Source: a bacterium
GTDB lineage: Bacteria > Babelota > Babeliae > Babelales > RVW-14
Length of the DNA: 41,327 bases
Direction: 5' to 3'
NCBI GenBank assembly: GCA_043822925.1
Contig: JBDRBF010000024.1
Span: 1-41,327, forward strand
Position numbers and translations under genes: made by a program. Position 1 is the stretch's first letter; the number at the start of each line of letters is the position of its first letter. Of the stretch, positions 10,842 to 39,801 are shown in pieces. The notes beneath the pieces were generated by a model, which saw only the letters and a list, made by a program, of their open reading frames with translations, searched no databases and was not told the origin of the DNA.

Positions 10842-10915
10842 TGTCATCCCAGACTTGCCTGCCTCGCCAAAGCTACGAGCTATTAGGCGAAGAGCGTAGG
10901 CGGGATCTGGGATCT
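10842..10915. repeat. nested repeat: family A host with family C insert (10858-10904)
   Basis: tgtcatcccagacttg[cctgcctcgcc...gcgtaggcggg]atctgggatct; removing the insert restores a simple hairpin. Confidence 0.85.
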
Positions 10916-10932
10916 ATTCATTTATTACACTC

Positions 10933-11733
10933 TTATCTTAAATACTGGGCCGGTTTTCTCTGTATAAGCGTTACCCACAAAAAACCCAGAAGTGCAAACG
11001 CGAACAGCATTATAGATATCATCTGAACTTGTGACAAGAGATACGTCAAAGCTCCCCGATCTCCCCTAAAAAAATCAACACTAAAACGCTCAATACTTTC
11101 AAGTATAAGATACAAAAACAAAAGCTGTCCCGGACGAAACATAAAATTTGCAACCAGAACACGCATCACAATAAATATACCCAGCAAAAACAAACTCGAA
11201 TAAATTTGCGCCGGGTGCAACGCTATACATAACGGCGCAGAGCCAACAGAATCCGTAAACGTCACCGCCCACCAAACATGCCCCCCAACAGGTACGCCGT
11301 AACAACAACCAGCCAAAAAACACCCGATACGCGCAATACTTTGCATTAGTGGCCCGTACACTCCGGCCAAATCAAAAATGACCAGTACTTGCCCCTCTTG
11401 TTTTATATGTTTTTTCAGATATAACGGAACCGTAACCAAAACAGCAATAATACTTCCCAGCACCGAAAAACCACCGATCCAGGGGTAAAACATATCTACC
11501 CAATTTGATGCGAACTCGCGAAAATCTGTCAAAACAAAAAGTATTCGGCCACCAAAAATACCCGCAATTAGTCCCAAAAATACGGCGTTCAAATAAACTT
11601 CGCCAGAAACTAAACGCTTTCTTAACGGATGTCTGTACGTGCAATATAAAAAAGCCAAAAACCCAATCGCAATCATAACGCCATAGCTCTGGATCCATAA
11701 CGGCCCATATATATGAATAAGTCGTGGAAACAT
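10933..11733 (-). CDS. lgt: prolipoprotein diacylglyceryl transferase
   Basis: SYGVM, GGRILFV, RIGCFLAGCCYG, LHPAQIY, RFSVDFFRGD; multiple TM segments. Confidence 0.95.
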   Translation of the reverse strand: MFPRLIHIYGPLWIQSYGVMIAIGFLAFLYCTYRHPLRKRLVSGEVYLNAVFLGLIAGIFGGRILFVLTDFREFASNWVDMFYPWIGGFSVLGSIIAVLVTVPLYLKKHIKQEGQVLVIFDLAGVYGPLMQSIARIGCFLAGCCYGVPVGGHVWWAVTFTDSVGSAPLCIALHPAQIYSSLFLLGIFIVMRVLVANFMFRPGQLLFLYLILESIERFSVDFFRGDRGALTYLLSQVQMISIMLFAFALLGFLWVTLIQRKPAQYLR

Positions 11734-11876
11734 TTTTACTTCTTACCCCGCCCAGACAATCCAGGCTTAAAGTTCGTTAAACTTATAAAAAAACTCGCTA
11801 AATTTCGACACTCAGTGTAGATAAAAAACTGAAATTAAAAAACAAAAACCAGCCAAATCTTTTATATCTCTCATGA

Positions 11877-12133
11877 TAACCCGGGGCCTCGTCAGGCCTT
11901 TAGGCCTGCCTCGTGCCCGGGCTAAAACAATCCACAAGCAAGCTTGTTGGATTGTACGCAAACCTACCGGTTTGCCGGAGTCAACGTTGTCTCAATTTTT
12001 ATAACAGAGTACCCGTATGGGTACGAAATCAAAAACAAACCCTTTGGGTTTGTGTACGATTAAACGAGCGTTGCTCGTTAATCGTTATAGCCCGGGCACG
12101 AGACGATCTTTAGATCAACGAGGCCCCGGGTTA
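11877..12133. mobile_element. 257-bp REPIN/MITE-like element with inverted ends and internal hairpins
   Basis: Perfect 16-bp outer IR (11877-11892/12118-12133), perfect 15-bp inner IR (11910-11924/12088-12102) and five or more internal hairpins. Confidence 0.7.
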
Positions 12134-12160
12134 ATTAAAACATATTTATTATTAAAAAAT

Positions 12161-13006
12161 TTAATAACAAAAGTGCAAAAGCTGTTCTTTTGTTAATCTT
12201 TGTTTTTCTTTTTCGTCTGCCATAAATACAATTTTTCCCGCTTTAAGTGCAACAAGCCGGTTGCCATACCGTAGAGCTTCGTCAAGATCATGCGTTGTCA
12301 TAATACAAGTCACAGCATGGGCCGTAATATAATCATGCGTTTTTTGCATAATAACTTGAGCCGTTTTTGGGTCCAGCGCACTCGTGTGCTCATCAAGCAA
12401 TAATAATTTTGGTTTGTGCCGTAGGCAAAGCGCAAGCGCCAAACTTTGGCGCTGCCCGCCAGAAAGCCGGGCAACATCTGTATCAAGTTTACCTGCAAGT
12501 TCTGGGCAAAACGTCGCCAAATATTGCGTATAAAAAGCTCGTTCTTGTGATTTAGAAATTTTAAACACATTAGACACAGACAAAAGACTTTGTACATGCG
12601 TATTATTCTCATGTATCAATTCATACATAAGACCGTTCTCAAAAACCGTAAACCCATAAAACAAATTATCCTGCGTATCCTGCGTTACCGTGCTTACCTG
12701 CTGCGTAAACATATCGCCAGATATATTCGCAATATTTTTTTCTTCAAGTAAAATATCGCCCTGTGTTTGTGTGTACATTTTGTTAATAATTTTAAGTAAC
12801 GAACTTTTTCCTGAGCCGTTACCACCAAGAATAATAACAAAGTCTCCCGGATAAACTGTATACGAAATATCTTCTAAAATCACACGCCCACCAATACCCA
12901 GATTTAACGAAACCTGTGAAAGCGTAAGCAGCGCTTGTTTATTTGCATGCTTACTTGCACCCAAATTCGCCTGCATATTCTCGACTGTACGTATCGTTTT
13001 ATTCAT
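12161..13006 (-). CDS. ABC transporter ATP-binding subunit
   Basis: GGNGSGKS, LSGGQRQ, LLLLDEHTSALDP. Confidence 0.95.
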   Translation of the reverse strand: MNKTIRTVENMQANLGASKHANKQALLTLSQVSLNLGIGGRVILEDISYTVYPGDFVIILGGNGSGKSSLLKIINKMYTQTQGDILLEEKNIANISGDMFTQQVSTVTQDTQDNLFYGFTVFENGLMYELIHENNTHVQSLLSVSNVFKISKSQERAFYTQYLATFCPELAGKLDTDVARLSGGQRQSLALALCLRHKPKLLLLDEHTSALDPKTAQVIMQKTHDYITAHAVTCIMTTHDLDEALRYGNRLVALKAGKIVFMADEKEKQRLTKEQLLHFCY

Positions 13007-13883
13007 GAGTGTTTCCCCCCGTTTTTTGAGCTACGTGTAAAAACATAATTAAGCCAAGCCCCAAAAAAAGTTTAAGATTAACCGGATCAATCCCAAAAAG
13101 TAACAACATATTAAGAGCCGTAAAATACACAGCCGAGCCAACCAAACAACCCAGGAGCCCCATCAAGGGGCTCCTAAACTTATTAGAGTTTGCATAAAAT
13201 AATTTAAGTATATGCTGACCAAAAGTAACCGTGCCAATACCAATAAGCGCCATGCCAAACCCCATCGAAATATCAGCATACCCATTAACCTGCGCTGTCA
13301 AAACACCACACAAAGCAGCAAGTGCATTACTTAAAGTTAGCCCAAAGCAACGATAATATTCTGGATTCTTGCCCAAACGCGCAAATAATATCCGGTTAAT
13401 CCCGCATGCACGCAAAAATAATCCCAAACGTGTAGCCAACAAAAACAAGAGCACAAGCGCAACACACAAAACACACAAGAAAATAATTATATGCTCTGCA
13501 TATACTGGGAACATGCTTGTTAATTTTGCATATAACGTACGCTCACGCGCAATACTAATATTAGGTCTACCCATAATCTGCAAATTAATACTTTGTAACA
13601 TAAACAGAACAAGTATACTCGCGATTAACGGCGATATTTTATTACGCCGAGAAATAAAACTCACAAAAGTTCCTGCCAGCGCACCAATAATTATTGCACC
13701 CAGCGTTGCCAGTATTGAGCTAAAACCAATATTAATTAGGGCAGCAAAAACACACGCTCCCAGCACAAAACTGCCATCGACCGTAATATCAGTCGTCTGC
13801 AAAATAACGTAACTAATATAAATACCAAACGTAAGGGGCAAAAAAAGAATAATTTGCTCAAGTATTGATATTAAAAAGCTCAT
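12999..13883 (-). CDS. ABC transporter permease (TrpY-like)
   Basis: DITVDGSFVLG, SINLQIMGRPNI, Q..GYADISMGFG; polytopic membrane protein. Confidence 0.9.
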   Translation of the reverse strand: MSFLISILEQIILFLPLTFGIYISYVILQTTDITVDGSFVLGACVFAALINIGFSSILATLGAIIIGALAGTFVSFISRRNKISPLIASILVLFMLQSINLQIMGRPNISIARERTLYAKLTSMFPVYAEHIIIFLCVLCVALVLLFLLATRLGLFLRACGINRILFARLGKNPEYYRCFGLTLSNALAALCGVLTAQVNGYADISMGFGMALIGIGTVTFGQHILKLFYANSNKFRSPLMGLLGCLVGSAVYFTALNMLLLFGIDPVNLKLFLGLGLIMFLHVAQKTGGNTHE

Positions 13884-13892
13884 AGCGCGCCC

Positions 13893-38958: not shown

Positions 38959-38985
38959 GAAGAAATATGGACTGAATCCCAGAAC

Positions 38986-39055
38986 CCCTTCGACCCTACT
39001 ACGCCCAGGTGGCTACGGATGACAAGTCGAAAGGCAGGTAAATCAGGGTGAGCGC
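38986..39055. repeat. nested repeat: family B host with family C-like insert (38994-39038)
   Basis: Reverse complement gcgctcaccctgattta[cctgcc...ccgtagccacctgggcgtagtaggg]tcgaaggg; same site in the host as at 31265. Confidence 0.7.
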
Positions 39056-39092
39056 TTCTGAGATAACAATAAAAAGTTATCGCACAAAATAA

Positions 39093-39371
39093 TTACTGTT
39101 TTTTTACAGGAGGGGCGCTAAGAACTGGGAAGGACTATGGTCATCAAACTTTCCTACTGATATTCAGGAACGGGCTTTAAAGAAATTGCGTCAACTGGAC
39201 GCGGCTGAGAACATTGACGATCTAAAGTTTCCTCCTGGAAATAAATTAGAACATCTTAAAGGTAGGCGCAAAGATCAAATGAGTATACGTATTAATATAC
39301 AATGGAGGCTTTGTTTTATATGGAAAAACGATGGGGCATACAACATTGAAATTGTTACGAGGACGCCATAG
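39093..39371 (+). pseudogene. higB: HigB (RelE/ParE-family) toxin, disrupted
   Basis: WEG..S..PTDIQERALKKLRQLDAA...PPGNKLEHLKG...SIRINIQWRLCFIW...YNIEIV; no proper start codon; terminal DYH missing. Confidence 0.85.
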
Positions 39372-39456
39372 CATGACAGCCGACACAGACTTACGTCTAT
39401 GTAAATTTTTTGGTCTATCAGAAGATTACTTCCTACGCTTACAAATAGCATATGAG
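39352..39456 (+). pseudogene. higA: HigA antitoxin internal fragment
   Basis: LLRGRHSMTADTDLRLCKFFGLSEDYFLRLQIAYE; N-terminal half absent. Confidence 0.8.
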
Positions 39457-39675
39457 AAATTTGCCCCACACCATTCTCTGCCCCCTTGGGCCTCGCTTTG
39501 CTCATGCCCAGGCTATAAAAGTTACGTCACGCCTAGTGGCGTGATTACATAAGATATCATATTTTCTCACGCTATAGGCGTGAAACCTGTATCTTAGCCT
39601 AGCCCGCGCCACGTAGGGCGTAATAGGAACACAAACAAATCGCCAGACTTGTGCGGTCCTAGGTCTTGCCCGAAA

Positions 39676-39724
39676 CTTATTTTCTAGATGCCCCACAAAT
39701 TCTCTGCTATAACTGAAAACATAA
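39676..39724 (+). promoter_or_regulatory. duplicated promoter block upstream of the second WD40 gene
   Basis: Copy of 35715-35763 with 3 mismatches. Confidence 0.65.
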
Positions 39725-39740
39725 GAAAAGGAAAATGGCC

Positions 39741-39801
39741 TGGATCCCAGTCCAGCCGTCACCCTAGATGGCTATAGCGGCCAGGCGAGTCTGAGATTAC
39801 A
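39741..39801. repeat. nested repeat: degenerate family A host with family C insert (39752-39785)
   Basis: Reverse complement tgtaatctcagactcg[cctggccgctatagccatctagggtgacggctgg]actgggatcca. Confidence 0.75.

Follow-up and report, generated by a model that had tools for sequence, protein, structure and literature searches.

What brings one short hairpin to lie, again and again, inside other hairpins, and does a dedicated enzyme put it there? The question is raised by a stretch of 41,327 nucleotides (the window) from a Babelales bacterium (contig JBDRBF010000024.1, assembly GCA_043822925.1), in which copies of one palindromic repeat, family C, interrupt copies of two others, families A and B. 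C is nested in A and B at four fixed positions and without target-site duplication, and each family is found beside its own clade of GIY-YIG nuclease genes. The assembly comprises 1.52 Mb in 86 contigs, with 37% GC, and is 92% complete.

Family C inside other hairpins

Family C is a unit of tag plus hairpin that ends flush with its stem. It consists of a CCTG or CCGTG tag, an arm of 6–7 nt, a GWA/GWM internal loop, a variable inner stem-loop and a flush closing arm. The outermost pair was scored in 159 distinct copies, taken from this genome and others and including non-independent copies from kin: C-G occurs in 76, T-A in 61, T-G in 12 and C-A in 4. When single elements were folded, the composite at 10842 alone scored better than its shuffles (z −3.85) and the other 12 did not. 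These scores are weak because the program gives no reward for GA-rich mismatches, and the structure rests on covariation. C is not a miniature inverted-repeat transposable element, as it carries an unpaired 5′ tag instead of terminal inverted repeats and is not accompanied by a duplication.

A preliminary description of the window listed six C inserts and three empty hosts, and all are present where it placed them (Table 1), the inserts being 47, 35, 35, 36, 45 and 34 bp long. Excision of the insert regenerates the host, A at CTTG^ATC and B at CTG^AG or CTTG^TCG. At most one letter is common across any junction, so there is no target duplication, again as first described. Six independent insertions are not supported; the composites at 15065 and 17643 are one unit seen twice (62 nt, 94%). 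The 15065 insert is spanned by contigs from two other runs of sequencing and the 17643 insert by a contig from one, so neither is an assembly artefact. B itself lies nested in A and in B, producing stacks such as A::B::C::C at 38972–39068.

The same arrangement is found throughout the genome. A structural search of the whole assembly for C returned 78 matches, compared with 2 and 1 in two shuffled controls, and position weight matrices built from the genome located 56 empty A and 46 empty B copies, with none in the shuffle. A and B together occupy about 0.29% of the genome and hold 33 of the 78 C matches, an enrichment of approximately 150-fold that agrees with the targeting of other repeats proposed earlier, and all 33 point in the direction of the host. 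Within A (20 copies), C sits at the loop in 15 cases and at positions 10–11 in 5; within B (13 copies), 11 are at CTG^AG and 2 at the loop. Nine further copies lie in C itself, four in a fourth hairpin family, D, and three at tRNA CCA ends, while the remaining 29, among which doubly nested, free and false matches are mixed, were left without a class. The classified sites all fall at host loops or GA-rich mismatches, positions that are predicted to be unpaired.

YTG, proposed earlier as the junction motif, is not a strict target, preceding only 31 of the 78 matches. The triplets before C are TTG (18), CTG (13), CGA (10), TCG (6) and others; the base next to C is most often G (51), then A (14), T (11) and C (2). 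These junctions bear on the possibility that no dedicated protein is involved and that polymerase, stalling at hairpins in single-stranded DNA (ssDNA), switches template between similar GC-rich hairpins and copies one into another. Such an origin would account for the fact that all targets are hairpins, for tandem C arrays and collapsed C-in-C forms, and for the commonest junction (TTG or CTG before CCTG), which provides microhomology on the 5′ side. However, the 3′ junction shares no letters with the host, yet both ends of C stay the same whatever the host or phylum, and the clade-by-clade linkage to nuclease genes described below is left unexplained. We regard template switching as improbable.

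Loci fetched from other genomes hold 177 distinct C copies, of which 20 lie within A or B, at the same host positions and never in the opposite direction; 3 or 4 of these 20 are doubtful, and the loci are not a random sample. The C variants that fill the hosts of other genomes are those genomes' own. Viral contigs hold 73 distinct copies, mostly free, with varied junctions (GG 20, GA 10, TG 8, CG 8). Folding across the junction of emptied sites was found for 19 of 53, 4 of 22 and 23 of 73, versus 18, 5 and 26 in swapped-flank controls. Head-to-tail C arrays occur at G038:C12:27113-27230 (four at 31-bp spacing) and at locus L050 (three or more). In A elements at loci L345 and L349, C lies at the 5′ tag or just ahead of it, close to the reported SsnA cut position. 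Locus L218 has a CCTG-tagged B copy nested in reverse within another B, which suggests that the CCTG tag is not exclusive to C.

GIY-YIG nuclease genes beside the repeats

A tree of GIY-YIG proteins was built from 92 sequences, namely two genes of this genome and 90 of the 213 matches (150 of them listed) in 60 phylum relatives; long UvrC-like frames and several matches at contig ends were left out. It resolves into clade a (18 proteins), clade b (25) and clade c (49), with supports of 0.94, 0.93 and 0.85. Families A, B and C were scored in flanks of about 230 bp. They are present at 9, 2 and 1 clade a genes, at 0, 21 and 4 clade b genes and at 1, 4 and 32 clade c genes, respectively, where shuffled means range from 0 to 1.4. 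The preliminary description had pointed to GIY-YIG genes as possible neighbors of each family, and such neighbors exist, with A at clade a, B at clade b and C at clade c.

Eight of the 18 clade a genes have inverted A copies around them by the detector. This genome contains two small GIY-YIG genes of the ssnA type, both between inverted A copies. Judging from the clade a motifs and the flanking repeats, the partner of A appears to be the Ssn family. In eight loci (L062, L072, L080, L089, L107, L110, L113, L116), which form a subgroup of clade a, the genes are flanked by inverted A-like hairpins with long, differing loops.

The consensus of empty A copies has a CGTC/TGTC tag, an 8-bp stem opening A-T, a 5-nt loop and a CCA tail, and falls within the definition of CGTC-tagged repetitive extragenic palindromes (REPs), which have a tag, a stem of 8–9 bp opening A-T, a loop of 4–5 nt and a CCA tail. 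None of the 56 A copies matches the published degenerate pattern of Ssn-related motifs (SRM) exactly; 11 differ at 2 and 27 at 3 positions, whereas 1 of 56 shuffled copies lies within 3 mismatches. Both mismatches of the consensus belong to one stem pair, A-T where the pattern needs C/G. The pattern misses 45 of 46 B copies by at least 5 mismatches and 60 of 78 C copies by at least 4. B and C are accordingly neither SRM nor CGTC-tagged REPs, since pattern and anatomy both fail and their partner genes lie in clades b and c, not in the Ssn clade.

The association of B with clade b and of C with clade c extends well beyond the phylum. Of 531 clade b loci from metagenomes, the best 80 include 76 with B (shuffled 2.4), inverted on both sides in 48, and a plasmid search found 31 distant clade b relatives. 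Among the best 80 of 586 clade c loci across phyla, which by record title include Alphaproteobacteria, Verrucomicrobiota, Bacteroidota, Deltaproteobacteria, Patescibacteria, others and some Dependentiae, C is present at 63 (shuffled 1.6), and 63 have a same-strand tRNA or tmRNA gene at most 400 bp upstream. Two clade b loci (L009, L058) have two C copies nested in each of both flanking B copies.

Clade c is also distinguished by its position. A same-strand tRNA gene lies upstream of 35 of the 49 clade c genes in the phylum and of none in clades a or b. Of 129 clade c cassettes, 71 have a reverse C that begins at the tRNA CCA. C is usually joined to the tRNA CCA end, which closes its stem. In 62 closed tRNA–C hairpins the CCA pairs with TGG in 61 and the next, variable triplet pairs in 53, across at least 11 triplets. 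Of these hairpins, 48 have an inverted copy of the arm with this variable triplet ahead of the second C. At four loci (L077, L092, L103, L105) the tRNA 3′ end and reverse C are repeated directly behind the clade c gene. A 20-nt direct repeat accompanies 7 of 49 clade c, 3 of 18 clade a and 5 of 25 clade b genes. In this genome, reverse C copies stand at the CCA ends of two tRNA-Ala genes, a tRNA-Leu gene and a tRNA-Ser gene (C2:68141, C38:26907, C52:2182, C20:35165). These four copies, behind which no nuclease gene was found, are likely relics of clade c cassettes.

The proteins of clades b and c consist of a single GIY-YIG domain with intact catalytic residues and a supported fold. The Tyr, Tyr-x-Gly, Arg, His and Glu columns are invariant in both. 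Clade b matches the UPF0213 structures (PDB 1zg2, 1ywl) at an E value of 1e-22; for clade c, the matches are to UPF0213 and Slx1, with values of 1e-10 to 1e-8. The best structural matches of a clade c model (pLDDT 97.6) are Slx1 and HIGLE (TM 0.74). None of six proteins had an NCBIfam match above the cut-off. C also tends to occur in genomes that encode clade c. In 121 genomes, the strict C pattern was present in 41 of the 72 that encode clade c and in 5 of the 49 that do not, one of the 5 being this genome, and in a set of 61 genomes C was found in 24 of 39 with clade c versus 4 of 22 without.

How the hairpins could spread

We lean, with little more than even confidence, towards the reading that A, B and C are companions of clade-specific GIY-YIG nucleases and that they spread by nick-primed copying into unpaired hairpin positions and subsequent hitchhiking. 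In this scheme the three families would act as oriented ssDNA hairpins with a short 5′ tag, a stem and a short tail, A being served by SsnA, B by the UPF0213-like clade and C by the Slx1-like clade, in keeping with the observed association. For SsnA, cleavage of ssDNA is reported a few bases upstream of the hairpin and on a single strand, with loop extensions tolerated (PMC11893778; Chenal et al. 2025). The clade b and c proteins would cut ssDNA at B and C as SsnA does at A. A nick in ssDNA at an unpaired hairpin position would leave a 3′-OH, at which host repair synthesis could copy or join the tag-plus-hairpin unit. C copies lie at predicted unpaired positions of the tagged host strand, and no duplication accompanies them. 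Inserts that spare the host stem may then spread as passengers of copied A or B composites, a step proposed because identical composites recur. A broader proposition, which we put forward as a tentative one and hold to be less likely than not, is that at least three orthogonal GIY-YIG enzyme–hairpin systems move hairpins without a transposase by nick-primed copying on ssDNA, with the Slx1-like system homing to hairpin bases or loops, whether at tRNA CCA ends or in the repeats of rival systems, and so parasitising other hairpins at a size of 30–50 bases.

Several points weigh against nick-primed copying by these nucleases. The cleavage and insertion roles of clades b and c are predicted from linkage and from likeness to SsnA, and we know of no GIY-YIG nuclease that carries out strand transfer. 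No intact clade b or c gene is present in this 92% complete assembly, in which a single 41-residue nuclease fragment lies near tRNA-Gln, and despite the lack of an intact clade c gene the genome ranks among those with the most C. Either loss of the nuclease genes for C and B or incomplete assembly may explain their absence, and the nested copies would then stem from earlier activity, from hitchhiking in A copies served by SsnA, or from SsnA cutting across families. C was undetected at 17 of the 49 clade c genes in the phylum, and A at 9 of the 18 clade a genes, most of which carry longer A-like hairpins. The expectation of empty orthologous sites was borne out for whole composites and not for single hosts: the lgt–dnaG junction has no repeat in 24 of 24 family relatives, but no host locus was seen filled in one genome and empty in another, because the compared relatives all belong to other genera. 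The junction between the ABC genes is likewise short in 19 of 22 relatives in which these genes are adjacent, and the other 3 carry their own A- or B-like repeats. Four public runs over 10300–30200, a range that excludes the inserts at 31265, 38994 and 39752, contain no joint that skips an insert; their low-depth contigs drop rare variants, so this null result is not evidence of absence.

A further point on that side comes from Y1 genes. REP/REPIN elements with their RAYT enzymes and IS200/IS605 elements with TnpA are oriented, 5′-tagged hairpins near a small nuclease gene, with head-to-head dimers and no target duplication, and the repeats described here share all of these features. The preliminary description favored an HUH (Y1) transposase acting in trans, for which the 5′ tag could serve as guide. 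A tag at the foot of the hairpin and the absence of duplication do fit REP/IS200 chemistry, and four Y1 genes are present in the genome. One of these (C83:55121) has, on inspection by eye, degenerate C copies nested in hairpins on both sides, and an A::B composite lies about 300 bp behind another (C2:23468). C nests in D, and D resembles hairpins at the Y1 ends of relatives. In the set of 61 genomes, C occurs in 15 of 21 with Y1 versus 13 of 40 without (p 0.006). Since C co-occurs with both clade c and Y1, physical linkage alone separates the two candidates. B and C were detected at none of 20 Y1 genes of relatives (from 50 listed matches) and at none of the four in this genome, which carry other hairpins. 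A pattern match for A at 2 of the 20 did not correspond to hairpins by eye. Three genomes (G031, G035, G006) have 10, 8 and 6 strict C copies and clade c genes and no Y1 match. Unlike the REP/RAYT and IS200/IS605 elements, the repeats are linked to GIY-YIG and not HUH enzymes, and C has no single conserved tetra- or pentanucleotide target; we do not class C with them and consider an HUH enzyme quite improbable. What does stand is the more general view of C as a non-autonomous element that is enriched in other repeats and depends on an enzyme encoded outside the window: the 32 open reading frames scanned in the window include no nuclease or transposase gene, and the partner clades are linked to the repeats elsewhere.

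The copies in this genome have evidently not all arisen by separate insertion. Filled B::C copies fall into subtypes of five near-identical copies, four, and two (15065 and 17643), each subtype in one B variant, and there are about ten A::C copies of one C subtype. This clustering by C subtype and host variant indicates that composites spread as units, and the six cases in the window are therefore not six events. It is possible, though in our estimate unlikely, that nothing more than this is needed: C would have little insertion preference, copies in unpaired parts of A or B would multiply with a functional host while free copies decay, and nesting would be survivor bias on a few old events. 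The tie of subtype to host variant, the mostly free copies with varied junctions in viral contigs and the indifference of SsnA to loop extensions (PMC11893778) are all in keeping with such hitchhiking without targeting. It does not readily explain the approximately ten distinct subtype–site combinations that we count here, the separate host and insert variants of other genomes, the constant host direction (33 of 33 here, 20 of 20 elsewhere), the presence of C in C, in D and at tRNA ends, or the abundance of B::C in a genome without a B nuclease gene. Nick-primed copying by the nucleases would place hitchhiking after targeted entry.

Family A is already known, as an Ssn-type repeat (PMC11893778) and a CGTC-tagged REP (Di Nocera et al. 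2013, PMC3733652). Like the NTS/SRM hairpins of the Ssn system (cd10448), A flanks two ssnA-type genes in inverted orientation, and B and C follow the same plan of tag, stem and tail with a single-domain GIY-YIG gene (PMC11893778). Unlike SRM, B and C miss the SRM pattern and have partners in two other clades, and the C cassettes are one-sided and situated at tRNA 3′ ends. In the portions of that paper's text consulted and in a term search of it, neither nesting nor a link to tRNA genes nor a mobility assay appears. CGTC-tagged REPs include Neisseria dRS3 and Rickettsia RPE-4/6, and some REP dimers are located within other palindromes (PMC3733652). A resembles them in its tag, stem, loop and CCA tail and in having an in-frame copy within a gene; B and C are different, with internal GA-rich mismatches and other tags. 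No partner enzyme was found for these REPs (PMC3733652), and fixed-site nesting of one REP in the loop of another does not appear in the portions of that text consulted. Stand-alone prokaryotic Slx1-like and UPF0213 proteins have been regarded as probable repair nucleases (PMC1564403), and in the portions of that survey, in contrast to clades b and c here, they are not linked to repeats or tRNA ends.

What appears to be new here is the B and C families, their nuclease clades and the fixed-site nesting, a variant of the Ssn-type nuclease–hairpin partnership. The literature searched holds no account of them; most subscription journals and the supplements and figures of the three papers lay outside its scope, and B- or C-like motifs could appear there. 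The origin and spread of CGTC-type and similar short palindromic repeats have been open since these were found without a transposase (PMC3733652), and the present repeats point to a way in which they could spread without one. Ssn is one enzyme–repeat pair, and B and C point to two more, widespread across phyla. If this is true, a function would be at hand for common, unannotated Slx1-like and UPF0213-like small proteins, which become candidate site-specific ssDNA nucleases with new specificities. GC-rich mosaic repeats would be explained as well, as would the small in-frame insertions that streamlined genomes contain. The likely substrates and precise element ends given here make cleavage and mobility directly testable.

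The window and its repeat copies

The repeat copies in the window are listed in Table 1. No Rfam family matched within the window at gathering score, and the repeats are thus not a known RNA family. The glycosyltransferase gene takes its final codons and its stop from the A copy at 3497, and the copy in cdsA adds approximately 14 residues to CdsA compared with 11 of 11 relatives.

Table 1. Copies of repeat families A, B and C in the window.
Feature	Position	Strand	Remarks
Family A, empty, degenerate	3497..3524	+	Overlaps 3′ end of glycosyltransferase gene (3499-4743, -)
Family A host	10842..10916	+	Split CTTG^ATC; between lgt and dnaG
Family C insert, 47 bp	10858..10904	+	Enlarged inner hairpin
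Family B host	15054..15113	+	Split CTG^AG; within remnants of outer A and B shells
Family C insert, 35 bp	15065..15099	+	
Family C, additional copy	15135..15165	+	Behind A-like tail; absent from the preliminary description
Family B host	17629..17688	-	Split TTG^AG; inverted 94% twin of 15054 composite; outer B/A remnants to ~17718
Family C insert, 35 bp	17643..17677	-	
Family A, empty	20432..20459	-	In frame within cdsA
Family B, empty	31226..31250	-	Head-to-head partner of filled B at 31248
Family B host	31248..31308	+	Split CTTG^TCG; between ABC ATPase and permease genes
Family C insert, 36 bp	31265..31300	+	
Family B host, degenerate	38986..39054	-	Within decayed A shell ~38972-39068
Family C insert, 45 bp	38994..39038	-	Collapsed C-in-C (compared with intact C-in-C copies)
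Family A host, degenerate	39740..39801	-	Split at loop
Family C insert, 34-35 bp	39752..39785	-	3′ end uncertain by one base

The genes of the window are housekeeping, ABC, macro-domain and WD40 genes. At 15053–17689, the inverted, 94% identical B::C composites enclose a macro-domain gene (15568–17400), as B encloses clade b genes, and the pair may possibly represent a composite cassette. A paralogue of the macro-domain gene lies at 18731–19774 (74% over 190 nt). The inverted 32-nt arms of a GTAG-type repeat family are found at 11910–12102, and the same family flanks the Y1 gene at C2:23468. A sigma-70 factor of 869 residues is encoded at 6379–8988, with about 240 residues ahead of region 1.1. 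Low-complexity tandem repeats of 9–18 nt and 48 nt occupy 32239–33457, in two open reading frames without a Pfam match. The region 35800–41327 encodes a WD40 protein of 1052 residues, followed by more beta-propeller-like repeats to the end of the contig.

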